From Actinomycetota bacterium (GTDB lineage: Bacteria; Actinomycetota; Thermoleophilia; BMS3ABIN01), in assembly GCA_016235065.1 (NCBI GenBank), contig JACRMB010000010.1, positions 6,281 through 70,280 on the forward strand: 64,000 nucleotides of DNA. The letters run 5' to 3'. This document shows positions 3,988 to 59,530 of this stretch, piece by piece (position 1 is the first letter of the stretch; each line of letters opens with the position of its first letter). The position numbers and the translations under genes are program-made. The notes beneath the pieces are model-generated. The model was not told the origin of the DNA and did not search any database. It saw only the letters and a program-made list of their open reading frames with translations.

Positions 3988-4628
3988 GTAACCTCTTTCC
4001 TGATTCTTTCAAACAGAAGCCGAAGCTGTCCGTGATCCTTGATTCCAGGAGCCGACTCGACCCCGCTGGATACATCGACGGCGAAAGGCGCCGCAGCCCG
4101 AACTGCATCCATGATGTTCAGGGGATTCAGGCCGCCGGCCAGAATCAGCCTCGCGCCCCGGAAGTCTTCGTCGAGCGCGGCGGGCAGGCTCCAGTCGAAT
4201 GTCTCTCCGCTGCCGCCCCGGCGCTCAGGATGATAAGTATCCAGCAGAATGTAATCGGTGTCAAACTGGACAACGCGCTCCAGCGACTCCGGACCCGATA
4301 CCGCCAGCGCCTTGATCACCAGCACGCCGGTGTGCTCCCGAACCTCGCGGCATTCCTCCGGGCTCTCGTCGCCGTGCAGCTGAACCGCCGTCAGCCCGCA
4401 GGCCTCCACCGCTCCGGCTATCACATCCGCCCTGGCGTTGACGAAGACACCAACGCGGTCTACGCCTGCAGGCGCCGACGCCAGCACTTCAGATGCCCGC
4501 GCGATACTCACCTGGCGCGGACTTTCCGGAGCGAAGATCACACCGAGCGCCCAGGCTCCCAGTTCCACAGCAAGCGCCGCGTCCTCAGACCGGGTGAGCC
4601 CACAGATCTTGACCTTCACATCCGCCAT
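3984..4628 (-). CDS. trpF: Phosphoribosylanthranilate isomerase
   Basis: [12 protein letters not shown] start, recomputed to the ATG at 4628 (the track's ORF extends to 4709). C-terminus GGLNPLN matches the TrpF family. Confidence 0.85.
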
Positions 4629-4633
4629 TGCCC

Positions 4634-5614
4634 TTACCTGTACTTCCGCGTCTGGAAGATGATTATCATGACAACAGAAACCACCGCCATGAACATGAGG
4701 CTCCCCCACATCCAGACACGGCTGCCCACGGGCAGTTCGGCGAAGTTCATCCCCCAGAAACCGGTGATGAAGGTGAGTGGCATGAAGATGGTGGCAACCA
4801 GGGTCAGCCGCTTCATTATCTCATTGAGCCGGTTGGAGACCGCTGAAAGATGCACGTCCAGGGAACCGGTAAGGATATCCCGGTAGGAATCGAGCATGTC
4901 TGACAACCGGATCAGGTGGTCGTAGACGTCGCGCAGATAAGGCAGTGTCTCACTGGTCACCAGCGGGAAGTCCCGGGATGTCATCTCGTTGATCGCCTCG
5001 CGCAGCGGGCCGGCTTTCTTGCGGAAATGGATCAGCTCGCGCTTGAAGTCGAAGATGCGGTGCACCGTCGTCTCGTCCGCCTTGGGATCCACCACCGCGT
5101 CCTCAAGGGCATCGAGCTCGTCCTCGACCCCGTCCACGGTCTCTATGTATCCGTCTACCACCGTGTCCATCAGGTAGTAGGCCAGCATGTCCGAGCCGCA
5201 ACTCATGATCCGGGACCGGCTGTCGGCGTCCTTCCAGACCCTCTGGATCGCGCGCGAGTCACCGCGATGTACCGACACCAGGAAATTACGGCCGACAAAG
5301 AGGTCGATCTCTTCCCACTTTAGAGACAGGCTGCCACCGCTGACGTCAGCGGTTACCGCGTGCATCACCAGGAAGAAGTGGTCATCGTAAGGTTCGACCT
5401 TGGATCGCTGTCCGTCGTCCTTGGAGGCGTCCTCCAGGGCCAGCTCGTGGAAATTGAAGGGCGGTGCTCCCAGAAGGTCGCGGTCTTCCTGGGTCAGGGG
5501 ACCGGCCATGTCGAGCCAGACCAGCCCGTCTCCCCTGCCAGCAAACTCGACCGCCTCGGCAACAGATACGGTTTTGACGCCCGCTTCTTTTGAGCCGCAC
5601 ACCTTGGCCTGCAT
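4634..5614 (-). CDS. corA: CorA magnesium/cobalt transporter
   Basis: GMN signature (FWGMNF) and two C-terminal TM helices. The ATG at 5614 is preceded by AGGTGG. The track's longer ORF starts at a GTG at 5623. Confidence 0.85.
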   Translation of the reverse strand: MQAKVCGSKEAGVKTVSVAEAVEFAGRGDGLVWLDMAGPLTQEDRDLLGAPPFNFHELALEDASKDDGQRSKVEPYDDHFFLVMHAVTADVSGGSLSLKWEEIDLFVGRNFLVSVHRGDSRAIQRVWKDADSRSRIMSCGSDMLAYYLMDTVVDGYIETVDGVEDELDALEDAVVDPKADETTVHRIFDFKRELIHFRKKAGPLREAINEMTSRDFPLVTSETLPYLRDVYDHLIRLSDMLDSYRDILTGSLDVHLSAVSNRLNEIMKRLTLVATIFMPLTFITGFWGMNFAELPVGSRVWMWGSLMFMAVVSVVMIIIFQTRKYR

Positions 5615-5647
5615 GTCCGCCACCTGTCCGTCGGCTGGGGTTTACCG

Positions 5648-5678
5648 GAAACAAACAAGCCCGACTGACGCCGGGCTG
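5648..5678 (-). terminator. Intrinsic terminator downstream of the L,D-transpeptidase gene
   Basis: Hairpin agcccg-actgacg-ccgggct followed on the minus strand by a U-rich tract (tgtttgttt). Confidence 0.4.
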
Positions 5679-5769
5679 AAATAAGTCGAACTTCCTGATC
5701 TGTCCTTCCAGACACAATAGCCGCTACACCTGATTGCCACAACGGCCACCGCAACCTGCCTGCTGCCAG

Positions 5770-7371
5770 CTACTCGTGAATATGCAGCGGTGTCCCGATC
5801 GGGGTCCAGTCATAGACATGCTTGGCTGTATCTACGGGCAGACCGACACAGCCATGGCTGGAACGTTGCCCGAAGGCGGTCGCCCAGTAATTTCCATGCA
5901 TCGTATAATCACCCTTGAAAACCATGACCCAGGGAACCTTCGGGGCGAAATATCCCGGGCCCCTCATGTCAATCGCGGACATCTTGGCGTAAATCGTGTA
6001 GTCACCCAACGGAGTGTCGGTGCCGGAATTGCCGGTCGAGCATAGGAAAGACTCCACTGCCACGCCATTTTCGTAAAGCGTCACAACCTGTTCTGAGATA
6101 TCCACGTCGATGGACTTGGCGGGAGCCGTCGTGAAAGTTGCTGTGGAATCTGCTTCCAGGAAACCTCCGGAGACTCCGCGCAGCGCCTGCGGACCGCTCT
6201 TGATGCTGATGGTAACGTCCTGCAGATGGTCCCAGGCGTTGGTCGGCTTGAACTCCAGACGGTTGGGAGCCGGCCAGGAGAAAGTCCCGTCGACCTTTGG
6301 CTCGACCGTGACCAGGGTGCGGGCGAGATCCTGGTTGGAAACAGGCTCGCTGAAGATTATCGCCGGATTCGCCTCAGTGCTGGCGCCCGAGGTCCCATCG
6401 GTAGGCTCGAAGACGAGTTGAAGCGCCGGCGCGGTCTTGACCGCGGATGCCAGTGGCGCCTTGAGCTCCCTGCCGTTGCTCGAAGTCGCACCGGTTATCT
6501 TCAGCGGGAATTCCTTGCCCTGTTCGAACTTGGCCAGGGCGATATGGGCAACACGGCCGCCCTCTTCAAGCCGTGAAGTACTCTGGATGCCTTCGAGCGT
6601 GTAATCGAAATCGCTGATCGGGATGTTCCATTCGAGGGTCACTTCTTCACCATACTTGACCTTGAGCCCATCCTTGGGAATTATCGGCATCGGAGTGGTC
6701 ACTGTCGTGAAGGTGACAGTCTGTTCCACCGGCGCATCGGCTACTCCGGACATCCCGAACTCCTTGACCGTGCCGGTGATAGTGATCGTATATTCAGCGT
6801 CGGCGACAAGGGGATTGGAGCCATCCTCAAGAACAAACCGGCCGTCAGTCAGGTGACCGCTCAGCAGGCGTTCGTTCTCACGAGTGCCGTCGGGGGCGAT
6901 CCGTGCTTCCTTGACCGCGACCGTCGCAAGGCTGGCGCCCCATCGGCTGGTCGAGATCTCCAGGCCGCTGTCGTCAGGGATTATCTCAGAGGAACCATCG
7001 CCGGGACTCACAGAGATCCGCGGAGGCAGGACGACCACGAGCAGCAGTGTCGCCACGACTGCAAGCGCCGCGACTCCACCGGCGATGATGACCGCGAGTT
7101 TTATGCGTGACGCCAGCTTGCCAACCTGCGGCGCCGTCAATTCCTTGGTTGCTTCCCTGCCCAGCTTGACCGTCCCGTAGTCTGATTGAGATTGGCACTC
7201 TTCTTGTAACTCATATTTATCCCCAATAGCCGGCAGACTAACCTTAACCTGGGGATTCGCCTCCGTCCGATTCGATGCGGCGCAACCAGAACAGCGCCGA
7301 TTCGGGACGAATAGAGGGAGTATAGCAAAGAGTAGAAGTGTGTTTCCAGAGCAATTTCTCATATTTCTCAT
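5770..7371 (-). CDS. L,D-transpeptidase (YkuD) with N-terminal signal/TM and Ig-like repeat region
   Basis: C-terminal catalytic motif HGNYWATAFGQRSSHGCVGLP, and an N-terminal hydrophobic segment. AAGGGGG lies upstream. Confidence 0.8.
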   Translation of the reverse strand: MRNMRNCSGNTLLLFAILPLFVPNRRCSGCAASNRTEANPQVKVSLPAIGDKYELQEECQSQSDYGTVKLGREATKELTAPQVGKLASRIKLAVIIAGGVAALAVVATLLLVVVLPPRISVSPGDGSSEIIPDDSGLEISTSRWGASLATVAVKEARIAPDGTRENERLLSGHLTDGRFVLEDGSNPLVADAEYTITITGTVKEFGMSGVADAPVEQTVTFTTVTTPMPIIPKDGLKVKYGEEVTLEWNIPISDFDYTLEGIQSTSRLEEGGRVAHIALAKFEQGKEFPLKITGATSSNGRELKAPLASAVKTAPALQLVFEPTDGTSGASTEANPAIIFSEPVSNQDLARTLVTVEPKVDGTFSWPAPNRLEFKPTNAWDHLQDVTISIKSGPQALRGVSGGFLEADSTATFTTAPAKSIDVDISEQVVTLYENGVAVESFLCSTGNSGTDTPLGDYTIYAKMSAIDMRGPGYFAPKVPWVMVFKGDYTMHGNYWATAFGQRSSHGCVGLPVDTAKHVYDWTPIGTPLHIHE

Positions 7372-7449
7372 CCCCCTTGCTTATCTGCTATTTTGATTAA
7401 GCAATATCCTGGCCCGCCACGGGCCGGGAGACCCCGCGAAAAGATCCTG

Positions 7450-8487
7450 ATGCCAGTGAAACGAAAAGCCTTAGCCCTGCTCTCCGGCGGCCTCGACAGC
7501 CGCCTGGCGGTCAAGATGATGCTCGAACAGGGCATCGAGATAGAGGGACTCAACTTCGTGACCGTGTTCTGCACCTGCACCGCGAGGAGCAGCTGCAAAT
7601 CCGAAGCGAGGAAGGCCGCCGAGGAGTACGGCATCCCGCTCAAGGTCCTCAACGCCACCGACGAGATCCTCGAAGCCATCGGCAACCCCAAACACGGTTT
7701 CGGCCGCGGCCTCAACCCCTGCCTGGACTGCCGTATCAGCATGTTCCGCCGGGCCGGCAGGTACATGAAAGAGACCGGGGCTGATTTCCTGGTGACCGGT
7801 GAGGTCTGGGGTGAGCGGCCCATGTCCCAGAGGCCGGACGCGCTGGCGACCATCGAGAAGGAATCCGGCCTTGCCGGGCTTATCGTGCGCCCGCTGTCGG
7901 CTCACCTCTTCGAGCCCAGCATCCCCGAGCGCGAGGGCTGGATCGACCGGGAGAAAATGATGGCGATCAGCGGCCGTTCCCGCAAACCCCAGATGCAGCT
8001 GGCCCACGAGCTGGGCGTCAACGACTATCCCTGCCCTGCCGGCGGCTGTCTGCTCTGCGACAAGAATTTTGCGGCCCGCCTCAAGCACCTCCTCCAGGAA
8101 GATCCCAAGCCCGCGATCGCCGAGATCCAGGCTCTGAGACTCGGGCGGCTCATCTTTTCTTCCGGGGGGAAGCGGATCATGATCCCAAGGAACGAGGAAG
8201 AGACCCAGCGGCTCGTGGCGCTGGCCCGTCCCAGCGACCTGCTCATGAGCGCCGAAGATCACATGGGCCCCACCGCCGTCATCAAGGGCAGCGAGATCGA
8301 CGAGGCGACATTGCAGGAAGCGGCGGCGCTGACCGCCCGCTACGGGCAGGGACGCGACGAGGAGAAAGTGACCGTATCTTACTGGCCCGCCGGCCAGGAA
8401 GTGGACGGCGGTTCCCCGGATCGCCATGCCCTGACTGTCTCCCCCGCTGATGGCTGGCGGCTGGCGGACTCGCTCACCCGGGAATAG
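7450..8487 (+). CDS. PP-loop ATP pyrophosphatase, ThiI-like adenine-nucleotide alpha-hydrolase domain without a THUMP domain, with a C-terminal extension of about 150 aa. Probable sulfurtransferase.
   Basis: The SGGLDS PP-loop sits 10 residues after the MPVKRK start. NPCLDC and CPAGGCLLC cysteine motifs are present. ATG 7450 chosen over the TTG at 7393. Confidence 0.65.
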   Translation: MPVKRKALALLSGGLDSRLAVKMMLEQGIEIEGLNFVTVFCTCTARSSCKSEARKAAEEYGIPLKVLNATDEILEAIGNPKHGFGRGLNPCLDCRISMFRRAGRYMKETGADFLVTGEVWGERPMSQRPDALATIEKESGLAGLIVRPLSAHLFEPSIPEREGWIDREKMMAISGRSRKPQMQLAHELGVNDYPCPAGGCLLCDKNFAARLKHLLQEDPKPAIAEIQALRLGRLIFSSGGKRIMIPRNEEETQRLVALARPSDLLMSAEDHMGPTAVIKGSEIDEATLQEAAALTARYGQGRDEEKVTVSYWPAGQEVDGGSPDRHALTVSPADGWRLADSLTRE

Positions 8488-8628
8488 GGAACTGACGGGG
8501 CCGCGCTCCGGTCCAGCCTTCACATGCCTTCTTTCTTATGCCTGCCGTTCTACCTCGGGATGAATCCTTTCCCCATGCGAAACATCTAAGGTATTAAATA
8601 GCGCAATGAAGGGTCCAGTACGAGGAAC

Positions 8629-8684
8629 GATTGCACAGATAAAGTGCGAAGCTCCCGATTACACAGATAAAGTGCGAAGCTCCC
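8629..8684 (+). repeat. Tandem direct repeat, 2 x 28 bp, one mismatch
   Basis: gattgcacagataaagtgcgaagctccc followed by gattacacagataaagtgcgaagctccc, directly abutting the AGGAGG Shine-Dalgarno of the next ORF. Confidence 0.8.
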
Positions 8685-8696
8685 AGGAGGTAACAG

Positions 8697-9044
8697 ATGT
8701 CAGTGAATGACAAGGTTGAGATCCCGGTATTCGGGTCACGGTACCTGGACTCCTGCTCCGGCGGTTGAGGCCCCAGCTGGTCTCTGGAAGAGATCACGGA
8801 GCATATCAACAGGCAGCTTGACCAGGATTTTGGCGGGACCGCCCAAATCCGGTATGTGGATTTCGATTCGCCGGAACTCTCGGAATTCCCGGAAGTCTAT
8901 CAGCGGGTGGCTGTTGACCGCGACCTTGAACCCGGCACGATCCTGTTCAGGGGTGAACTGGTGCCGATATGGGATGTCCAGTACAACCGCCTGACCGAAG
9001 AGTTCGTGAAGATGGGCGCAGAGCCCGTCCGCAAGGCTTCGTAG
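8697..9044 (+). CDS. Candidate 115-aa protein with one in-frame TGA at 8766-8768. It is either a selenoprotein or an interrupted pseudogene.
   Basis: AGGAGG then a 6-nt spacer then ATG at 8697. MSVNDKVEIPVFGSRYLDSCSGG-TGA-GPSWSLEEITEHINRQLDQDFGGTAQIRYVDFDSPELSEFPEVYQRVAVDRDLEPGTILFRGELVPIWDVQYNRLTEEFVKMGAEPVRKAS-stop, in a single frame. A 6-bp stem-loop starts 11 nt after the TGA. Confidence 0.35.
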
Positions 9045-9163
9045 TACCTGCTCCAGCAGAATGAATAAAGGACGGCCATGGCGCCGTCCTTTTTTTGTCC
9101 GTTTCGAATGCATCCGCCGCCAGGCCAACAATCGGCCACCAGAGCGTCGCGCACCGGCCGCGG

Positions 9164-10138
9164 CTACTTCGCCAGCACTCCCAGCAGCTGCCACAGATCC
9201 AGGTCGAGCTGCTTGGTCTTCGCCGCGACTTCCTCCAGCGGGGTCAGGGCGATGCCGCCGTCGATCCAGCCTGCCAGCCGGCCGCTGCCGCCTCCAGCCA
9301 GGAACTCGACTGCCGCCGCTCCCAGCCGGCTCGCCAGTATCCGGTCGAAACTGGATGGCGCTCCACCGCGCTGTACGTGCCCAAGGATCGTGACCCTAAG
9401 TTCATAGCCGATCTCGTCCTCACGCGACCGGAAATATTCCATGCATCGCTGGGCGTTGTTACGGGCGCCGTCGGTGACGACAGCCAGCGCGTAGCGCTTG
9501 CCACGGGCGTGGGCCGCCGCCAGCTGCTGCTCCACCTCGGCGGGCTCGATATCGAACTCGGGCGTAACGATGACGTCGGCGCCCCCGGCCAGCCCCGCCG
9601 CCAGCGCCAGGTAGCCGCAGCTCTTCCCCATGACCTCGATGAGAAAAGCCCGGTGGTGCGACTCGGCGGTAGTGCGGATGCGGTCGATCGACTGGATTAT
9701 TATGTCGAGCGCCGTGTCGACGCCGATGGTGATGTCCGAGCCGTGGAGATCGTTGTCGACAGTGGAGGCGACCCCGGCCACAGCCAGTCCCATCCTGCCA
9801 AGCTCATGGGCGCCCGCCTGGGAGCCGTTGCCGCCGATGACGATCAGGCCATCGATGTTCTCGCGCCGCAGGTTCTCCACCGCCCGGCCCCTGGCAGCCT
9901 CGCTCTCGCGGAACTCCCGGCTGCGGGCCGTCCCCAGGAAGGTGCCGCCCAGGTGCAATATCTCGCTGACGTCACGGTTCCCCAGGGGGATGACGTCGCC
10001 TTCGATCAGGCCCTCGAAGCCGTTGCGGACCCCGAACATCTCCATGCCGATGTCGGTGCCCACCCGCACGATAGCCCGGACCGCCGCGTTCATCCCCGGC
10101 GCGTCGCCGCCACTGGTGACGACTGCTATGCGTTTCAT
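9164..10138 (-). CDS. pfkA: ATP-dependent 6-phosphofructokinase. Atypical GGNGS in place of GGDGS.
   Basis: 324 aa with MKRIAVVTSGGDAPGMNAA, TVDNDL and HVQRGG. GGAGG Shine-Dalgarno upstream. Confidence 0.9.
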   Translation of the reverse strand: MKRIAVVTSGGDAPGMNAAVRAIVRVGTDIGMEMFGVRNGFEGLIEGDVIPLGNRDVSEILHLGGTFLGTARSREFRESEAARGRAVENLRRENIDGLIVIGGNGSQAGAHELGRMGLAVAGVASTVDNDLHGSDITIGVDTALDIIIQSIDRIRTTAESHHRAFLIEVMGKSCGYLALAAGLAGGADVIVTPEFDIEPAEVEQQLAAAHARGKRYALAVVTDGARNNAQRCMEYFRSREDEIGYELRVTILGHVQRGGAPSSFDRILASRLGAAAVEFLAGGGSGRLAGWIDGGIALTPLEEVAAKTKQLDLDLWQLLGVLAK

Positions 10139-27654: not shown

Positions 27655-27825
<171 letters not shown>

Positions 27826-40239: not shown

Positions 40240-43200
40240 TCAGGCTGGCGAGCCCGCATGGATCTCTGCCGGAGAGCCGACAAAGACGTCCCTGACCCCG
40301 CCAAGGCCCTGCATGCGGTGGATGAACTCGTCGGCCGGATCCACCTGCTGCCCCAGTTTCAGGCGGCGGAGGCCGTCGTCGGTCATCATGCTGATGATCA
40401 CCGGGGAGCATCCCGGATAACTGTCGCAGAGATCCTTCATGTCAGTCAGGACATCCGGATCGATCTCACCATGGTCCACGGAAAGCTGCACGATCCCGGC
40501 GGCTGGTTCGGTGCCTTCTGTCTGAACGGAGTTCCCATCTCGAGCCTGGTTATTTCCTGCGATTTCCTGCTCTCCCGCCATCCCTGTGGCTGCATTGCCG
40601 CCTTCACTATCGCCATTCTTCTCATCCACTCGCGGCCGACTGCTGCTTTCATCCTTGCTCTTCCGCCTTGCGGCGCCACCGCTGCTCCCTTCCGGGCGTC
40701 GGACGAACTCGCTGATCGAGCTGGCGACTATCTTCACTTCACGCCTGCCGTCGTCGTCGATGCCCTTGAGGTCGACACGGCCTTTGACCACCAGCACCTC
40801 ATCCTCCTCAAGCAGTGCGTTGCACTTGTTATAAAGCTTGTTGAAGACCACGACCTCGGTGCTGTCTTCCAGATCCTCAAGGTTGAAGAAGGCCATGGGG
40901 TCGCCGCTCTTAGTCGTCAGCCGCTTGACCTTGCCGACCATCCCGATGACCTTGACACTGGTCTTGTCACGGACTTCCTGCAGCTGGGCGACGGTTATGG
41001 CGCCGGCCGCCGCGATCTCGTCCTCCAGTCCGACCAGTGGATGGCCGGATACGAAGATGCCCAGCGTCTCCTTCTCGAGCCGTGAGAGCTCCCTGGGGCC
41101 ATACTCATCAGCAGGGATCTCGGGATCGTGGACGTCGTGCGAAGCGCCGTCGTCCACCAGGTCGAAGATGGAACCCTGGCCCAGCAGACTGTCCTGCTGG
41201 CTCTGAGAGCCCATGCCGAGGGCCTGTTCCATAATCGCGATCATCCCCTTGCGGCTGGCGCCGGTCGAGTCGAGGGCGCCGCATTTTATCAGGCTTTCCA
41301 GGGCGTTCTTCTTCAGCTGCTGGGAGTCGACCCGGCGGCAGAAATCGAAAACGGAAGTGAATGGCCCATCCATTTCGCGGGCCGCGATTATGGACTCGAT
41401 CACCTTGCCGCCCACATTCTTGACCGCGGTCAGCCCGAAGCGTATCCGGTCACCGACGACCCTGAAATCGCTGCCACTCTCGTTCACGTCCGGCGGCATG
41501 ACCTCGATGCCCATGCGGTTGCAGACGCTGACGTAGAAAGGCACCTTGTCCTTGGTGCTCATGACACTGGATATCGTCGCTGCCATGTACTCAACCGGAT
41601 AGTTGGCCTTGAGCCAGGCGGTCTGGTAGGCAAGCAGTCCGTATGCCGCGGCATGGGATTTGTTGAAAGAATAATCGCCGGCGTCGTCCATCAGCTTCCA
41701 GAGGCCTTCGATCGCACCAGGATCGACCTCGTTTGCCTTGCAGCCGGCGACGAACTTGCTCTTGAGGCTTTCCATCAGGTCGCGTTTCTTCTTGGCGATC
41801 GCCTTGCGCAGGTCGTCGGCTTCGGCGGGCGAGAAACCAGCGAGCTTCTTGGCGATCTCCATCAGCTGTTCCTGATAGACCGCGACGCCATAAGTGGGCT
41901 CGAGTATCTCCTGAAGCCTGGGGTCTACATACTCGACTCCATCGGGGAATTTCTTGTTGCGGGCAAACTCGGGGATGTGCTCCATGGGGCCGGGGCGGTA
42001 AAGCGCGACGAGCGCGATGATATCCTCGAAGCAGGTCGGCCCGACGTTGCGGATGGCGTCCTTCATTCCAGAGCTCTCCAGCTGGAAGACGCCGTCGCTC
42101 TGCCCCAGGCGCAGCATCTCGAAAGTCTTTTCGTCATCCAGCGGCAGGCTGGATAGGTCGATATCCTCGCCCTTGCTGTCCTTGATGAGCCTGACCGCCG
42201 CCTTGAGGATGTCGAGGTTACGCAGGCCGAGGAAATCCATCTTCAGCAGCCCCAGCGCCTCCACATGTCCCATGGTGAACTGGGTTATGACTTCAGCATC
42301 CTCACCTTTCTGCTGCAGGGGGACATAGTCGGTAAGCGGACGGTCAGAGATAACCACACCCGCCGCATGGATGGAATCCTGCCTGATCAGCCCTTCAAGG
42401 GGCAGTGCCAGGTCGATGATCTTCTTCGTCAGCTCTTCATCGTCGTAGGCCTGCTTCAATTCCTGTCCGGGTTTGAGGCAGTCCGCAAGCTTGATGCCGG
42501 GGCCCTCGGGGATGAATTTCACGATCCGGTCGACGTCGCCGTAGGGGATGTTCATGACCCGGCCGGCATCCCTCGTCGCCTGCCGGGCGGCCATTGTGCC
42601 AAAAGTTATTATCTGGGCGACGTTCTCCCGGCCATAGCGCTCGGCTACGTAAGCCAGCACCTTCTCCCGGTCCACGGGCGAGAAATCGATGTCGATATCG
42701 GGCATGCTCTTGCGGCCCGGGTTGAGGAAGCGCTCGAACAGAAGATCGTATTTCAGAGGATCGATGTCGGTGATGCCGAGACAGAAAGCGACCAGGCTGC
42801 CCGCGGCCGAACCACGGCCGGGGCCGACGGCGATGTCGTTATCTTTGGAGAACTTGACAAAATCCCAGACTATGAGGAAGTAGGAGGCGAAGTCCATCTC
42901 GCCGATCGTCGCCAGTTCGAACTCCAGCCTCTCCCTGACCTCGGCTGAAACTCCCTCTGGATAACGCCGGGCGAGCCCTTCCTCGCACAGGCGCCGGAGA
43001 TAGGCGTTGCCATCGCTGCCATCCGCAGTCTCAAAACCCGGGATCAGCAGCTTGTCGAATTCCATGGTGACGTTGCAGCGGTCTGCGATCTCGATCGTGT
43101 TAGCCAGCGCTTCCGGCGCGATAGAAAAGCCGGCTGCCATCTCTTCAGCGCTTTTGAGGAAGAAATCATTGCTGGGCAGCGCCATCCCTTTTTCCTCCAG

Positions 43201-43926
43201 GGTGCTGCCGGTCTGCACGCAAAGCAGGGCCTCATGGGCGGAGAAATCTTCCTGGCTCAGATAATGGACGTCATTGGTGGCGATCAGAGGCCTCCCGGCT
43301 TCGGCGGCCACCTCGACCACCAGCGGATTGATTGCCGTCTGCTCTTCGATGCCGTGGTTCTGGATCTCGATAAATACGTTCTCCGAACCAAAGATATCCT
43401 GCAATTCCTGCACTTCCGCGACGGCGGCCTCTTTATCTCCCGCCTTCAGCAGTTTTGACATGCGTCCGCTCAGGCAGCCGGTGAGGGCGATAATGCCCTC
43501 TGAATGCTCCCTCAGCACCTGCTTGTCTACCCGCGGCTTGTAATAGAAGCCTTCGAGGAACCCCTTCGAACAGATGCGCACCAGGTTCTGGTAGCCGGTA
43601 TTGTTCTCCGCAAGAAGAGTCAGGTGGCTCCAGTCCATCGTCTTTTTCTCGAAGCGGTCAGGCGCCACGTAGGCTTCAAACCCGATGATCGGCTTGATCC
43701 CGCGCTTGGTGGCTTCCTTGTAGAACTCCACTGCGCTGGAAAGCACCCCGTGGTCGGTGATGGCCACCGCGGACATCCCCAATTCCTGGCAACGTACTAG
43801 CAGAGGAACGATACGGACAGCGCCGTCGAGAACGGAATATTCGCTGTGGACGTGAAGGTGGACGAATCCAGACGCCGGCGGGGGTGCCGGTGCTTCGCCA
43901 ACGGGCTTGGCGTATGACTCGCTCAA
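40240..43926 (-). CDS. dnaE: DNA polymerase III alpha subunit
   Basis: PHP domain (FVHLHVHSEYS), polymerase core and OB fold, plus a C-terminal extension of about 150 aa. Start is uncertain: TTG 43926 with AAGGGAG upstream, or the TTG at 43983 that begins the track's ORF. Confidence 0.9.
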   Translation of the reverse strand: MSESYAKPVGEAPAPPPASGFVHLHVHSEYSVLDGAVRIVPLLVRCQELGMSAVAITDHGVLSSAVEFYKEATKRGIKPIIGFEAYVAPDRFEKKTMDWSHLTLLAENNTGYQNLVRICSKGFLEGFYYKPRVDKQVLREHSEGIIALTGCLSGRMSKLLKAGDKEAAVAEVQELQDIFGSENVFIEIQNHGIEEQTAINPLVVEVAAEAGRPLIATNDVHYLSQEDFSAHEALLCVQTGSTLEEKGMALPSNDFFLKSAEEMAAGFSIAPEALANTIEIADRCNVTMEFDKLLIPGFETADGSDGNAYLRRLCEEGLARRYPEGVSAEVRERLEFELATIGEMDFASYFLIVWDFVKFSKDNDIAVGPGRGSAAGSLVAFCLGITDIDPLKYDLLFERFLNPGRKSMPDIDIDFSPVDREKVLAYVAERYGRENVAQIITFGTMAARQATRDAGRVMNIPYGDVDRIVKFIPEGPGIKLADCLKPGQELKQAYDDEELTKKIIDLALPLEGLIRQDSIHAAGVVISDRPLTDYVPLQQKGEDAEVITQFTMGHVEALGLLKMDFLGLRNLDILKAAVRLIKDSKGEDIDLSSLPLDDEKTFEMLRLGQSDGVFQLESSGMKDAIRNVGPTCFEDIIALVALYRPGPMEHIPEFARNKKFPDGVEYVDPRLQEILEPTYGVAVYQEQLMEIAKKLAGFSPAEADDLRKAIAKKKRDLMESLKSKFVAGCKANEVDPGAIEGLWKLMDDAGDYSFNKSHAAAYGLLAYQTAWLKANYPVEYMAATISSVMSTKDKVPFYVSVCNRMGIEVMPPDVNESGSDFRVVGDRIRFGLTAVKNVGGKVIESIIAAREMDGPFTSVFDFCRRVDSQQLKKNALESLIKCGALDSTGASRKGMIAIMEQALGMGSQSQQDSLLGQGSIFDLVDDGASHDVHDPEIPADEYGPRELSRLEKETLGIFVSGHPLVGLEDEIAAAGAITVAQLQEVRDKTSVKVIGMVGKVKRLTTKSGDPMAFFNLEDLEDSTEVVVFNKLYNKCNALLEEDEVLVVKGRVDLKGIDDDGRREVKIVASSISEFVRRPEGSSGGAARRKSKDESSSRPRVDEKNGDSEGGNAATGMAGEQEIAGNNQARDGNSVQTEGTEPAAGIVQLSVDHGEIDPDVLTDMKDLCDSYPGCSPVIISMMTDDGLRRLKLGQQVDPADEFIHRMQGLGGVRDVFVGSPAEIHAGSPA

Positions 43927-44019
43927 AAGTTCTCCCTTAACCTCACGACGAAAGATTCTACTCCCGCCGCCCTGCCGGTTCAACAGATTTACGTTATATC
44001 GCCATCTTTAACTGTATCC

Positions 44020-54330: not shown

Positions 54331-54366
54331 AGCTTCTCCTAAAACCACTCAGGTTTTGAGTTCAGA

Positions 54367-54401
54367 AAAAAAAGGTGGCAGGTTTGCCGCACGGGCAAAC
54401 T
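54367..54401 (-). terminator. Attenuator-type intrinsic terminator between the leader peptide and leuA
   Basis: Minus strand gtttgcc-cgtgc-ggcaaac, then ctgccacc, then U8. It sits 2 nt after the leader-peptide stop. Confidence 0.5.
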
Positions 54402-54403
54402 AC

Positions 54404-54466
54404 TAGATAATCTCCCCCGCCAGGGGGAGGAGAAGCAAACTCAGGAGGGAAGTCGCGGGCAGCACA
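54404..54466 (-). CDS. Leucine-rich leader peptide (20 aa) of the leu operon
   Basis: GTG start, then MLPATSLLSLLLLPLAGEII (8 Leu codons, with a run LLSLLLL). GGGAGG lies 7 nt upstream. Confidence 0.45.
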
Positions 54467-54490
54467 AAAAAGCCTCCCGCGGGGGAGGCC
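54467..54490 (-). terminator. Hairpin plus U6, either the terminator of the upstream GGDEF gene or the leader pause hairpin
   Basis: Minus strand ggcctcccccgcgggaggc followed by tttttt. Confidence 0.45.
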
Positions 54491-54630
54491 GGTTCCTGCG
54501 AGACAGGATTGTCCACAAAAACTGAGGCCATTAGGAAAACATGATATTGGAGTTCGTGGGAGATTTCAACTGAAGAGCAGTATGAGTCATAACATAAGCA
54601 GGTGCCGGGGGCTTGCGGCCCGCCACTTGC

Positions 54631-56427
54631 TCAGACGGCCTCTCTCAGACTGCTCTTCCCCTCAGATCTTGCAAGGCTGACGAACATCTTCACAAGCCGC
54701 GGGTCAAACTGGGTGCCGGCGCCCTTTTCGAGCTCGGCCAGAGCATCATTCACAGAAAGCGCCTTGCGATAAGGCCTGTCTGAGCGCATGGCCCGGTACG
54801 CGTCCATGATACCGACGATTCGCGCCATCAGCGGGATCTGCTTGCCCTCTAGCCGTTCCGGATAACCCGTGCCATCCCAGCGCTCGTGGTGATATAGAAT
54901 GGCGCTGATCAGTTCCTGAAGCTGCCGGGCCTCCTCAAGGATATGCTGGCCGATCTCCGGATGCTGCTGCACCGCAGCCAGCTCCTGGGGAGAGAGTTTA
55001 TCCTTCTTTGAGAGGATCGCTCCGGGAACACCTATCTTGCCGATATCGTGCAGACGGGTCGCCAGGGCCAGCGCGTCCGCCTGCTCGTCTTCCATTCCCA
55101 GTTCCTTCGCCATCGCGTCGACGATAGCGTTGAGTGACATTGTGTCGCTGACGGAATAATTATCGCTTGCATCCACTGCCTCAGCCAGAGCACGGATAGT
55201 CTGCAGGCTGGCACCCTCCAGGCGACTGTTGAGCCGTTCGATATCGCCTTCCTCGAGCTCCGTCCCTGAGAGGTCCCGGAAATAAGCGACCCGGTTCCGT
55301 CCCCTGCGCTTGGCGAAAAGCAATGCCGAATCGGCTGCCGATATCAGGCTGTCGGCATCGCTGGCACAGTCGGGCATATCAGCGACCCCGAAGCTTGCGG
55401 CAACGATATTCTCCGGCAATTCCACGTCCCTGGCGACATCCTTCATCAGCCCCCTGAGCCTGTCGGCCGTCTCCATGGCTGTACTCGCAGCTGCCTCAGG
55501 CAACAGGACGATAAATTCTTCGCCACCGTATCGGGCCGTATAGCCACCCTCATGGACCTCATTGCGCAGCAGTTTTCCGACCCGCCGCAGCACTTCGTCA
55601 CCCTTCTGGTGACCGTACCGGTCGTTCACTGTCTTGAAATGGTCCAGATCCAGCATGATCATAGAGAGGGGTTTGTGACGGGACTCAGCTCGATCCGCTT
55701 CCCACCTCAGGTGATGCTGAAAATGGGCGTGGTTGCGAAGTCCCGTCAAAAGGTCGGTGTCAGCCATCTCCCGAGCCTGCCTGTGGAGCAGCTCCAGCTC
55801 GGCATACTGGTCCTTCAGTTCTTCGTTGGCGGCCGCCAGCAGTTCTTCTTTCTCACGAACGGCCAGCATCAGGCTGTTGAAGTTCTCGCCGATCTCATCG
55901 ATAGGATTCTGCCCTACCGCATACCGGTAGACTTCGCACTCAGAACAGCCACCCAGCTTCTGGGCGAACCGCCCCTGGACCTCTCCACCACAGTAAGTCC
56001 CCGCTACGAGCCAGCAGCGGACATGCTCCTTTCCGTATGCCGGGCACGATGTCTCACCACAGTCCTTGATCTGCCAGCAGGTCCCGATATTCTCATCTTC
56101 AAAACTGACGTCCCATACCTGTGCCTGCACCGCGTCGTGCGTCAGGCTGGAGAATCTCGATTTTGCCCCTTCGAGCTCTGCTTTTCGCTGCGCCAGCTCC
56201 ATGTTCCTCTGGTAAAGGGTGATCTTCACGAGGTAGTAGCAGAACGCGCCGACAAGAAAACCCGCAACCAGGCAGGCAAACCTGAAATACAGCTTGCGAT
56301 CCGGATCCCAGGTAACAAAGGGGCTTGCGATATATGGAAATACCAGGCCCATGGTCAAACCGAAAGCGATCATGACCATAAAAATACGCCTCATGGATGA
56401 AAGACGCTCCGCGAAAAATCGTATCAT
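54631..56427 (-). CDS. Membrane-anchored GGDEF diguanylate cyclase + HD-GYP phosphodiesterase with a 7-Cys module
   Basis: 2 TM helices, then CWQIKDCGETSCPAYGKEHVRCWLVAGTYCGGEVQGRFAQKLGGCSECEVY, then GGEEF, then HDIGK...HHERWDGTGYP. GGAGG Shine-Dalgarno. Confidence 0.85.
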   Translation of the reverse strand: MIRFFAERLSSMRRIFMVMIAFGLTMGLVFPYIASPFVTWDPDRKLYFRFACLVAGFLVGAFCYYLVKITLYQRNMELAQRKAELEGAKSRFSSLTHDAVQAQVWDVSFEDENIGTCWQIKDCGETSCPAYGKEHVRCWLVAGTYCGGEVQGRFAQKLGGCSECEVYRYAVGQNPIDEIGENFNSLMLAVREKEELLAAANEELKDQYAELELLHRQAREMADTDLLTGLRNHAHFQHHLRWEADRAESRHKPLSMIMLDLDHFKTVNDRYGHQKGDEVLRRVGKLLRNEVHEGGYTARYGGEEFIVLLPEAAASTAMETADRLRGLMKDVARDVELPENIVAASFGVADMPDCASDADSLISAADSALLFAKRRGRNRVAYFRDLSGTELEEGDIERLNSRLEGASLQTIRALAEAVDASDNYSVSDTMSLNAIVDAMAKELGMEDEQADALALATRLHDIGKIGVPGAILSKKDKLSPQELAAVQQHPEIGQHILEEARQLQELISAILYHHERWDGTGYPERLEGKQIPLMARIVGIMDAYRAMRSDRPYRKALSVNDALAELEKGAGTQFDPRLVKMFVSLARSEGKSSLREAV

Positions 56428-56455
56428 CTTGCTGCCTCCGACCTTTTCCTGGAAC

Positions 56456-58252
56456 TTAGCCTGCCTGGCGTAATTCCTGATCTTCCCCGCTCTTTACCAG
56501 CTCCACGAATATCTCAACCAGCTGTGGATCGAACTGGGTACCTGCGCCCTTCCGCAACTCTTCCAGTGCGACTACAGGCTTCAAAGCTTTGCGATACGGC
56601 CTGTCGCACAACATAGCCCGGTATGCGTCCATGATTCCTACAATGCGAGCCATGACCGGGATCTGCTCACCTGCCAGCCGCTCCGGATAGCCATTGCCAT
56701 CCCAGCGCTCGTGGTGATAAAGGATCGCCTGGATCAGGTCCTGTATCTGCTCTGCCTCCTGGAGCAGCTTCTGGCCGATCTCGGGATGCAGCTGAACCTG
56801 GGAAAGCTCCTCGGGCGAAAGCTTCTCAGTCTTTCTGAGGATGGAACCCGGGATGCCCACCTTGCCGATATCATGCAGCCTCGTGGCTAGAGCCAGGGCG
56901 TCCGTCTGTTCCTGGTTCATGCCCAGCCGCTCCGCGATAGCTACAGCGACATGCGCCATCCTGGAAGTACTCGCTTCAGAGTAATCGTCGCAGGCATCCA
57001 CGGCTTCGGCTAGGGCTCTAATGGTCTGCAGGCTGGCGCCCTCGAGGCGGCTGTGCAACTTGTCGAGGTCACCATCGCGCAGCTCGGTGTCTGAAAGGTC
57101 ACAGAAATAGGCAACGCGGTTGCGGCCCTTCCTCTTGGCAAACAAAAGGGCAGAATCAGCGGCGGATATAAGACTCTCAGCGTTGCTGGCGCAGTGGGGC
57201 AGATCGGCGACCCCGAAGCTCCCGCCAACAAGGCCGGAAGGCAGATCGACCTCCGCCTCGACGCTACTCATCTCACGCCTCATGTTGTCAGCGATTTCCG
57301 TCGCCCTCTCAGCAGTCATATCTGGCAGCACTAACGCGAACTCCTCCCCGCCATAACGCGCCGAGTAGCCCGTCCCACGCACACTGTTACGGATGAGCTT
57401 TCCCACGCGCTGAAGGACTTCATCGCCCTTCTGATGGCCGAAATGATCATTGACGTCCTTGAAGTGGTCGAGGTCCAGCATGATCAATGAAAGCGGCCTG
57501 CTGTATCGCTGGGCCCGCTCCACTTCCCACTGGAGATGCCGCTGGAAGTGGGCGTGGTTTCTCAGACCTGTAAGCATATCCGTATCAGCCATCTCCCGAG
57601 CCTGCTTATGCATCAGCTCGAGCTCTGTATACTGCTTCTGCATCTCGGCATTGGTGTCGCTCAGAAGATCTTCCTTCTCGCGCAGCGCCCACATGAGGCT
57701 GTTGAAATTCTCACCTATCTCGTTGATCGGATCGCGGCTGACAGATACCTGGTATATCTCACATTTTGCGCAATCCCCGAGCTTCTGGGCAAAATGTCCC
57801 TGGACCTCTCCGCGGCAAAAAGTACCGGCGATCAGCCAGCAGCGTACGTGCTGCCTGCCATAGGACGGGCAGTCCTCGGATTTGCAGCCTTTGACCTCCC
57901 AGCAGGTGGGAATGGAAGGATCCTTGAAACTCACGTTCCAGTCTTTTTTGGTGATAGCGTCGTGGGTCAGCGTGGAGAACTTGGTCTTGGCTTCAAACAG
58001 CATGCTCGACTGGTGGTGGATTTGATCAGATTCCCGGCCGATGACAAAGGCTGCGGTCCCACCCAGAACAGGCGCTACGAGGATATGCATGGCTTCATAA
58101 TCCGCGCCATACCGCATTTCCACAATATATGCGAAAAGGGCATACACAAAGCCCGCAGCAGCCCCGGCGATGCCGTAGTTCAAGGCCTTTCGACTGTGGT
58201 TTGTTGCCCTCACGACCGCCCTGTCAGTGGAAGAAACAGCTAAAGCTCCCAT
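56456..58252 (-). CDS. Paralogous GGDEF + HD-GYP membrane protein with the same 7-Cys module
   Basis: Same architecture, with CWEVKGCKSEDCPSYGRQHVRCWLIAGTFCRGEVQGHFAQKLGDCAKCEIY. ATG 58252 chosen over 58369. Confidence 0.8.
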   Translation of the reverse strand: MGALAVSSTDRAVVRATNHSRKALNYGIAGAAAGFVYALFAYIVEMRYGADYEAMHILVAPVLGGTAAFVIGRESDQIHHQSSMLFEAKTKFSTLTHDAITKKDWNVSFKDPSIPTCWEVKGCKSEDCPSYGRQHVRCWLIAGTFCRGEVQGHFAQKLGDCAKCEIYQVSVSRDPINEIGENFNSLMWALREKEDLLSDTNAEMQKQYTELELMHKQAREMADTDMLTGLRNHAHFQRHLQWEVERAQRYSRPLSLIMLDLDHFKDVNDHFGHQKGDEVLQRVGKLIRNSVRGTGYSARYGGEEFALVLPDMTAERATEIADNMRREMSSVEAEVDLPSGLVGGSFGVADLPHCASNAESLISAADSALLFAKRKGRNRVAYFCDLSDTELRDGDLDKLHSRLEGASLQTIRALAEAVDACDDYSEASTSRMAHVAVAIAERLGMNQEQTDALALATRLHDIGKVGIPGSILRKTEKLSPEELSQVQLHPEIGQKLLQEAEQIQDLIQAILYHHERWDGNGYPERLAGEQIPVMARIVGIMDAYRAMLCDRPYRKALKPVVALEELRKGAGTQFDPQLVEIFVELVKSGEDQELRQAG

Positions 58253-58405
58253 CGGTCCCGGATGAACAAACTTTAAATAGCCCTTCTTTATTTGAAGGGG
58301 TTCCACGGAAAGGGTTGAAACAACTACCTGTGGGCTTTTTGAAGCCCGGTAAATACGGTGATTATCCATGATTCGAGCCTGGATAGCGGAAATGGAGTCT
58401 TACTG

Positions 58406-59530
58406 ATGTACAGACTTGTCTTTTCACGAAAAAGCATACAGATAACAGGCGTTGGCGGAAGGCTGGCAGCCTGTATGTTCCTGCTTGCCCTCTTCCTCGC
58501 CGGCAGTACTGCCCTGGCGCAATCAGATGTCGCTTCCCGACAGGCGGAAGTGGATCGCATCAGAGCCGAAGTCGCTTCCATAAACCAGGCTGCCGAGCAG
58601 GCTATAGAACGATACAACCAGGCCAACTCGGAGCTTGAGGAGACCCGCCGCCAGATAGCCGAGAATGAGAAAGCCCTGGCAGATGCGACGGTCAAGCTGA
58701 CCGAAGCCCAGCTGCGCCTGGACAAGCGCCTCGAGAACATCTACCGCCAGGGCTCGCTCAGCTTCATGGATGTGATGCTCAACACGAGTTCTTTCAACGA
58801 GTTTCTGTCGAGATTCGACCTGCTTGGCAAGATCGGGGCCCAGGACAAGACCGACGTCGAAGAGGTCCTGAGCCTGAAAGCAGTGACAGAGCAGGCGAGG
58901 GCCGATCTCGACCGCACCAGTCTGCGTCAGGAAGAGCTCCTGAACGCCGTCAACGGTGAGAAGTCCGAGATCGAAGCACAGCTCTCGGCGCGCCAGTCCG
59001 TTCTTTCCAGCGCTGAAGGGGAAGTAGCCCAGATGCTGGCCCAGCAGCAGGCTGCGGAACAACAGTCCCAGGCGGTCTACCAGCCCGCAGGTGGCGCTGT
59101 CGCAACAGATCCCGGCGCAGAAGACTCACCGTCAGGCGAACCTGCCCCCGTGGAAGATCCCGGATATTCCGATCCACCGCCGCCCACGAGCGGTGACGCG
59201 GCATCAATAGCCATGGGCTACCTTGGTGTCCCATATGTGTGGGGCGGCGCCTCACCTGCTGGCTTCGACTGTTCAGGACTGGTCATGTATGTATATGCCC
59301 AGCTCGGCATCTACCTGCCTCATTCGGCATCGGCACAGTACTATTCCGGAACGCCGATCAGCTACTCGGAACTGGCGCCTGGTGACCTCGTGTTCTTCGG
59401 CAGCCCCATAGGGCACGTGGGCATCTACATCGGCGGTGGCAGCATGATCCATGCCCCGTTCGAAGGCCAGGTTGTCTCTATTACTGGTGTCAGCGGCGGC
59501 GGCACTTATTCCGGAGCCTGCAGGCTTTAG
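58406..59530 (+). CDS. Secreted NlpC/P60 peptidoglycan endopeptidase with N-terminal coiled-coil
   Basis: Signal peptide, then a long coiled-coil, then the NlpC/P60 core (GFDCSGLVMYVY...GHVGIYIG...H). GGAG Shine-Dalgarno. ATG 58406 chosen over 58358. Confidence 0.8.
   Translation: MYRLVFSRKSIQITGVGGRLAACMFLLALFLAGSTALAQSDVASRQAEVDRIRAEVASINQAAEQAIERYNQANSELEETRRQIAENEKALADATVKLTEAQLRLDKRLENIYRQGSLSFMDVMLNTSSFNEFLSRFDLLGKIGAQDKTDVEEVLSLKAVTEQARADLDRTSLRQEELLNAVNGEKSEIEAQLSARQSVLSSAEGEVAQMLAQQQAAEQQSQAVYQPAGGAVATDPGAEDSPSGEPAPVEDPGYSDPPPPTSGDAASIAMGYLGVPYVWGGASPAGFDCSGLVMYVYAQLGIYLPHSASAQYYSGTPISYSELAPGDLVFFGSPIGHVGIYIGGGSMIHAPFEGQVVSITGVSGGGTYSGACRL

Follow-up and report, generated by a model that had tools for sequence, protein, structure and literature searches.

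Tandem GGDEF and HD-GYP domains in a single chain are a recurrent arrangement, in which one domain of the pair is often inactive and a few proteins are truly bifunctional (PMC6205966). Two neighboring genes for proteins of this kind lie on the minus strand of a 64,000-nucleotide stretch of DNA from an Actinomycetota bacterium (contig JACRMB010000010.1, positions 6,281 to 70,280; the whole of this stretch is called the window below), and in both of their products a module of seven cysteines stands between the membrane segments and the catalytic domains. The window proteins share the catalytic pair with the described GGDEF–HD-GYP dual enzymes, with both catalytic motifs intact, whereas an RxxD motif is absent and the input is a two-CW domain rather than a REC, PAS, or GAF domain. 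This module is a real, ancient, and strongly constrained cytoplasmic signaling domain that is mechanically coupled to the output. On balance, we favor the reading that it is a metal- or iron–sulfur (Fe-S)-based cytoplasmic input, which shifts the enzymes between synthesis and hydrolysis of cyclic di-GMP (c-di-GMP).

Control of a diguanylate cyclase by a metal has a precedent in DgcZ (YdeH), in which a cytoplasmic zinc site N-terminal to the GGDEF domain controls the cyclase allosterically. The CZB domain of DgcZ forms a bundle of four helices, with three His and one Cys in its zinc site. The concept is alike, but the GGDEF domain of DgcZ (3TVK and 4H54) matches only the window GGDEF residues 223–383, and CZB has no sequence similarity to the two-CW module. 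The control of DHp and GGDEF outputs by PAS, GAF, and HAMP inputs via coiled coils is likewise an established arrangement. Like HAMP (PF00672), the window module directly follows the second transmembrane (TM) helix, and the D-E-I-G-x-x-F-N-x-M helix behind it resembles the AS2 helix of HAMP, whereas a 55-residue Cys-rich fold replaces AS1 and the connector. In NreB, a PAS domain with a [4Fe-4S]/[2Fe-2S] cluster serves as the Fe-S sensor input of a signaling protein (PMC13478379). With NreB, FNR, and the WhiB-like Fe-S sensors, the two-CW module shares only a hypothesis, namely that of a Cys-ligated cytoplasmic cluster reporting O2, NO, sulfide, or redox state; its Cys spacing and fold are unrelated to theirs, no sequence, profile, or Foldseek match to them was found, and a cluster in the two-CW module is putative.

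The two open reading frames (ORFs) on the minus strand, 54631–56427 and, in its longest reading, 56456–58369, are separated by a gap of 28 nt. In both proteins, two TM helices are followed by the seven-Cys module, a long helix, a GGDEF domain with the sequence GGEEF, and an HD-GYP domain, which is the order given in the original prediction. The features are as follows, where residue numbers for gene 2 refer to the 637-residue ORF.

54631 to 56427, minus strand: gene 1, 598 residues, given by the ORF and by a database entry with 100% identity (P0001)
56212 to 56397, minus strand: gene 1, TM hairpin, residues 11–39 and 45–72 with a loop of about 6 residues (Kyte–Doolittle)
55936 to 56079, minus strand: gene 1, two-CW module, C117–C164; 55912 to 56115 (residues 105–172) with its conserved flanks
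55765 to 55911, minus strand: gene 1, helix and predicted coiled-coil linker beginning with DEIGENFNSLM, residues 173–221
55291 to 55764, minus strand: gene 1, GGDEF domain, residues 222–379, GGEEF at 301 (PF00990, E = 7.3e-43)
54694 to 55188, minus strand: gene 1, HD-GYP domain, residues 414–578, HDIGK at 460 and HHERWDGTGYP at 513 (PF13487, E = 2.1e-40)
56456 to 58252, minus strand: gene 2, 598 residues from the ATG at 58252, with the architecture of gene 1
58034 to 58177, minus strand: gene 2, TM hairpin, residues 65–85 and 92–112
57761 to 57904, minus strand: gene 2, two-CW module, C156–C203
57590 to 57736, minus strand: gene 2, helix and predicted coiled-coil linker with NEIGENFNSLM, placed by alignment with gene 1
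57116 to 57589, minus strand: gene 2, GGDEF domain, GGEEF at 340 (PF00990, E = 1.5e-43)
56519 to 57001, minus strand: gene 2, HD-GYP domain, HDIGK at 499 and HHERWDGNGYP at 552 (PF13487, E = 2.8e-40)

The scores for PF00990 were 146.6 and 148.8 bits for proteins 1 and 2, respectively (gathering threshold, 23.8), and those for PF13487 (HD_5) were 138.7 and 138.3 bits (gathering threshold, 27.2). The GGEEF, HDIGK, and HHERWDG[TN]GYP motifs are intact in both proteins, so that their earlier description as tandem membrane-bound GGDEF and HD-GYP paralogues holds. The HD-GYP half aligned over its full length with the solved enzymes 5Z7C and 4MCW, including the conserved motifs, and the GGDEF half aligned with many solved diguanylate cyclases; for the first ~200 residues, no match in the PDB was observed. 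The RxxD I-site upstream of GGEEF, which was sought with the pattern R..D.{5}GG[DE]EF, is absent in both proteins, and HEGG and RGTG are found in its place. This site is typical of GGDEF cyclases, and it is not obligatory. In both proteins, the TM helices are joined by a loop of about 5–10 residues in the Kyte–Doolittle analysis, indicating that neither protein has an extracytoplasmic sensor domain. Judged from their sequences, both are candidate bifunctional diguanylate cyclase/phosphodiesterases that are anchored in the membrane and probably dimeric.

The pattern C-x5-C-x4-C-P-x-Y-G-x4-R-C-W-L-x-A-G-T-x-C-x-G-E-V-Q-G-x-F-A-Q-K-L-G-x-C-x2-C was found in both proteins exactly as the original prediction had written it, with all seven cysteines (C117/123/128/138/146/161/164 in protein 1 and C156/162/167/177/185/200/203 in protein 2) invariant between the paralogues. 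Against a profile built from homologues, the modules of proteins 1 and 2 gave E-values of 1e-36 and 1e-37, respectively, which are far beyond chance. The module had not been recognized earlier as a named domain; however, both proteins pass the cut-off of 35 bits of the NCBIfam model NF045718, 'two-CW domain-containing protein', with 42.3 bits for residues 116–170 of protein 1 and 39.0 bits for residues 155–208 of protein 2. The window modules share with the best-scoring members of this family the seven cysteines, all of which align with those of the canonical members P0205 and P0209, and the two C-W dipeptides, which are C117-W118 and C138-W139 in protein 1. The 55 window residues cover positions 2–77 of the 80 positions of the model, and the ~21 positions that they lack are loop insertions of the stand-alone members. 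The model is centered on small stand-alone proteins with two copies of the domain, whereas the window modules represent a short-loop form that is embedded in a sensor protein. With the family profile, no further copy was found in the window beyond these two. Therefore, the window proteins join a family that is already catalogued by NCBIfam, and their catalytic pairing is likewise a known architecture.

No Pfam family matched the window modules at E ≤ 10, and no relative of the module was found in the PDB by phmmer, by a 65-sequence profile, or by Foldseek. Among 65 relatives, matches to Fe-S or zinc-finger Pfam families were limited to a single chance-level match each to Fer4_17 and zf_Rg. The profile search that had been proposed for the module, with a known structural zinc finger as the outcome speaking against a sensory role, thus returned no such match in Pfam, nor was one seen in the PDB. 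In the literature searched, no publication on the 'two-CW domain' or NF045718 was found, also not via the themes of Cys-rich or Fe-S kinases and GGDEF proteins, and no described function of the NF045718 family was found. Sub-threshold matches to DUF2769 were observed in 4 of the 65 modules (E = 0.024–0.03, spanning C2 to C7), and a link to this family, for which we know of no function, is not claimed. The modules of three of the 65 relatives also gave sub-threshold matches to the uncharacterized family DUF3624. A distant relationship of the module to DUF2769 and DUF3624 is possible.

A word-indexed search with the 87-residue module returned nothing, and one with a 65-sequence alignment returned six proteins; an exhaustive HMMER search was needed, in which a profile of 43 modules was compared with 1.84 billion representative proteins. 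This search yielded 1,681 two-CW clusters at 50% identity for E ≤ 1e-3, and 621 for E ≤ 1e-10. The module was present in all ~115 close homologues, which are from Thermoleophilia-type metagenome-assembled genomes (MAGs). Across 312 aligned copies, drawn from proteins of several phyla with unrelated outputs and ~30–50% identical to the window module, each of the seven cysteines is conserved at 98.1–99.7%, and similar values hold for Trp in the second CW (99%), one Thr (99.7%), and one Gly (98%). In otherwise complete copies (n = 304), replacement was confined to the fifth Cys (C146 in protein 1), with Ser in five and Tyr in one, and this Cys may be the least essential ligand.

The conservation across phyla bears on one explanation of the shared Cys pattern, which is that it is a by-product of recent duplication with no significance of its own. 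Between the paralogues themselves, which are 67% identical over 510 residues, the module indeed does not exceed the remainder of the chain in conservation: the identity is 65% in the module, 63% in the linker helix and coiled coil, 68% in the GGDEF domain, and 70% in the HD-GYP domain, and it falls to 34% in the helix after the TM segments and 24% in the TM hairpin. The statement that the flanking sequence had diverged is therefore borne out on the N-terminal side of the module but not on its C-terminal side. Nevertheless, retention of the same seven cysteines at 98–99.7% in 312 copies from several phyla with unrelated outputs refutes the by-product explanation, which we consider scarcely credible.

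The duplication is also not recent. In a syntenic relative, L002 (JGI 3300013138, Ga0172371_10004050, 4452–9803), three tandem paralogues of 585, 595, and 600 residues were observed, flanked by NlpC/P60-hom-thrC on one side and leuA-leuCD on the other, as in the window, and the locus is kept with two or three tandem paralogues in related Thermoleophilia-type MAGs. The presence of three paralogues at the equivalent site in L002 indicates that the duplication is old and the locus stable. In some orthologues of the second paralogue, namely P0094, P0096, P0097, and P0100, the A-site is degenerate (GKEEF or SGEEF) and the HD-GYP domain is intact, and the relatives P0108–P0114 (~400 residues) stop after the GGDEF domain, without HD-GYP. 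These observations suggest sub-functionalization in the family; the window pair retains both sites.

Pfam scans of the top 147 representatives, which were carried out in two batches of 74 and 73, showed the two-CW domain beside a wide range of partners. HisKA/HATPase_c was found in 84 of the 147 representatives, Response_reg in 44, HAMP in 27, GGDEF in 20, and MCPsignal in six, with PAS in about 20 of each batch; GAF, Hpt, and Cache domains were further partners. Paired two-CW domains stand at the extreme C-terminus of methyl-accepting chemotaxis proteins (MCPs), as in P0129 (355–413 and 428–488) and P0133, and the domain lies N-terminal to CheW in P0269–P0271, for which the gene neighborhood was uninformative. 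The small stand-alone two-copy proteins, including P0205 and P0209, score best on NF045718 (134–208 bits), and they retain the seven cysteines with longer C2–C3 (15 residues) and C3–C4 (9–23 residues) loops.

A genome scan with an eight-sequence alignment as the query and one genome per species confirmed at least 404 two-CW loci, in Thermoleophilia/Gaiellales-type MAGs, Nitrospirota (Thermodesulfovibrionia, Nitrospiraceae, Ca. Sulfobium, and Nitrospira), Desulfobulbales, Planctomycetota, Poribacteria, Deferribacteres, and Chloroflexota. Among 79 retrieved loci, the combined GGDEF and HD-GYP output was seen only in Thermoleophilia-type MAGs, often as tandem pairs, and the loci of other phyla had kinase or GGDEF-only outputs.

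A TM-like segment after the module was observed in only one of the 147 relatives. This result indicates that the module and the cytoplasmic outputs share one side of the membrane, as had been proposed. TM segments were absent from 60 of the 147, and exactly two preceded the module in 54, which matches the layout of the window proteins. Throughout the family, the module is followed by the motif D-x-x-x-x-G-E-x-F-N-x-M, which reads DEIGENFNSLM in window protein 1. Counted from the last Cys, the H-box of the kinases follows at 55 residues in 33 proteins, 62 in four, and 69 in five, with a second series at 57 (10 proteins) and 64 (15 proteins); by our own count, 68 of the 79 kinases with a spacing of ≤100 residues fall into two of the seven residue classes. 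The distances from the last Cys to the GGDEF domain are 116, 123, and 137 residues. These steps of seven residues fit a continuous coiled coil that runs from the module to the output. Overall, the recombination with histidine kinase, GGDEF, MCP, and CheW outputs and the heptad-quantized linkers are the behavior of an input domain, in agreement with the role first proposed for the module.

For the module segment, AlphaFold2 (AF2) with a diverse alignment gave a model with a pLDDT of 86.6 and a pTM of 0.74. In this confident model, the Cys-rich body is compact and for the most part irregular, and it contains one short beta-hairpin and three short helices; the long helix behind it begins at the DEIGENFNSLM motif and was modeled from residue 71 to residue 95 of the segment.

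Under the favored reading, an old tandem duplication would have given two c-di-GMP turnover enzymes, each with a diguanylate cyclase site and an HD-GYP phosphodiesterase. The two-CW domain, a compact fold of ~55 residues held by the seven cysteines, would be the sole candidate input, and would bind a metal center, which may be an Fe-S cluster or zinc. The redox state of the center, the integrity of the cluster, or the occupancy of the metal would be the signal, which would travel along the conserved 'D-x-I-G-E-x-F-N-x-M' helix and a continuous coiled coil and reach both the GGDEF dimer and the HD-GYP domain, so that the enzyme would move from net synthesis to net hydrolysis or back. That a metal is bound, which cofactor it is, what is sensed, and in which direction the activities shift are all proposals; ligation of a metal or a cluster is suggested because seven near-invariant cysteines lie within ~50 residues in a reducing compartment. 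A sensory rather than a purely structural role is suggested by the mobility of the module, which is found with different outputs and also in places where it would have no signal to pass on, and by the lack of any further input domain in the window proteins. This mobility suits a sensor or ligand-binding module better than a transmitter.

Several observations weigh against this reading. Neither an Fe-S nor a zinc-finger family of Pfam matches the module, and searches by sequence, profile, and Foldseek yielded no relative in the PDB; a conserved eighth ligand was sought in the 312 copies and none was found, so that seven, an odd number of ligands, are left; and the fifth of these is sometimes Ser or Tyr. 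The confident AF2 fold, obtained with no cofactor, is more typical of structural zinc modules. The domain also occurs in aerobic Nitrospira and is thus not limited to anaerobes, indicating that its taxonomic distribution does not imply an oxygen-labile cluster. In addition, divergence between the paralogues is greatest in the TM hairpin, and differing signals might enter there rather than by way of the module.

The principal alternative is that the two-CW domain is a structural, zinc-stabilized transmitter or dimerization element, which itself senses nothing and relays, as HAMP does, a signal perceived elsewhere, in the TM hairpin, a partner, or other domains. The confident fold without a cofactor would suit such an element, as would the C-x2-C pair before the helix, which is typical of zinc knuckles, and the divergence of the paralogues chiefly in the TM hairpin. 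Furthermore, the module directly follows two TM-like segments, the usual place of HAMP, in the window proteins and 54 of the 147 relatives; many relatives have sensors besides the module, of the PAS, GAF, or Cache type; and the helix after the module gave sub-threshold Pfam HAMP matches in 9 of the 65 relatives, confined to AS2 (profile positions 32–52 of 53). However, no HAMP match at E ≤ 10 was obtained for residues 71–222 of protein 1, and HAMP identity of the window module was rejected for this reason; TM segments are lacking in 60 of the 147 relatives, and some relatives have a canonical HAMP domain besides the module. Moreover, there is nothing to relay at the C-termini of MCPs, where no helix follows, ahead of CheW, or in the stand-alone two-copy proteins. 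A pure relay is regarded as rather unlikely, although it is the main rival. A protein–protein docking or oligomerization domain, which would recruit its bearers to a partner or array that they have in common, perhaps the stand-alone two-CW proteins, would also fit two observations: the module occurs in the stand-alone proteins, in CheW fusions, at MCP C-termini, and in many kinases, and single Thermoleophilia-type MAGs contain several two-CW proteins that differ in their outputs. No conserved neighboring partner gene was found, the loci in the window and L002 being flanked by housekeeping leu and thr genes, and the heptad-quantized coupling to the catalytic domain points to allosteric control rather than mere tethering; we consider docking improbable.

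In a broader form, the favored metal- or cluster-based input would make the two-CW domain a new class of cytoplasmic metallo-sensor whose fold has no counterpart in the PDB, maybe a Cys7-ligated Fe-S or other redox-active metal center, which feeds a redox, gas, or metal signal to kinases, c-di-GMP enzymes, and chemotaxis arrays. We put this forward tentatively, as a possibility that is somewhat doubtful in its full extent. If true, this class would serve Thermoleophilia, Nitrospirota, Thermodesulfobacteriota, Planctomycetota, and others, and in the window proteins the domain would flip a bifunctional cyclase/phosphodiesterase. What is understood of bacterial signaling comes mostly from its input domains. 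The two-CW domain is among the few abundant ones that remain without a structure, a ligand, or a publication, and each of the three major output systems, namely two-component kinases, c-di-GMP enzymes, and chemotaxis, takes input from it. An unusually simple test case is offered by the window proteins, with a single candidate input, opposing catalytic domains whose ratio can serve as the readout, and natural paralogues; a cofactor and a signal found here would annotate the whole two-CW family.

The product of gene 1 is identical to P0001 from an Actinomycetota MAG, which is labeled 'MAG: diguanylate cyclase [Actinobacteria bacterium]' by NCBI, and a GGAGG is located 9 nt upstream of its ATG. 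For gene 2, the candidate starts are the ATG at 58369 (637 residues), the ATG at 58252 (residue 40 of the 637-residue ORF, giving 598 residues), and the TTG at 58183, which is the NCBI start and gives 575 residues (P0036). The longest ORF, with the start at 58369, overlaps a divergent NlpC/P60 ORF on the plus strand (GTG at 58358) in the region 58183–58406, and the N-termini of the gene 2 orthologues lie 14–24 residues ahead of the first TM helix. The start at 58252 is preferred because of these orthologue N-termini and this overlap. It is likely that both gene 2 and the NlpC/P60 gene start later than in their longest readings, which would leave a divergent intergenic region of ~150 nt.

The surroundings of the locus are housekeeping genes: leuA-leuCD lie downstream of gene 1, and genes for the NlpC/P60 protein, homoserine dehydrogenase, and threonine synthase lie divergently upstream of gene 2. 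A consensus scan gave one further feature 3' of gene 1.

54471 to 54490, minus strand: terminator-like hairpin followed by a T-run, before leuA

This hairpin and the 28-nt gap between the genes suggest a two-gene operon. The gap between gene 1 and leuA is 282 nt (54349–54630) and contains a promoter-like site at 54569–54541 on the minus strand. In an Rfam scan, no riboswitch or other Rfam element was found adjoining either gene, including a leader in 54349–54630. The sole Rfam match in the window was an FMN riboswitch (RF00050) at 27700–27820 on the minus strand, with 111.3 bits against a gathering threshold of 66.2. A very long ORF of 1,247 residues with a TTG start was also observed elsewhere in the window, at 40240–43983 on the minus strand.

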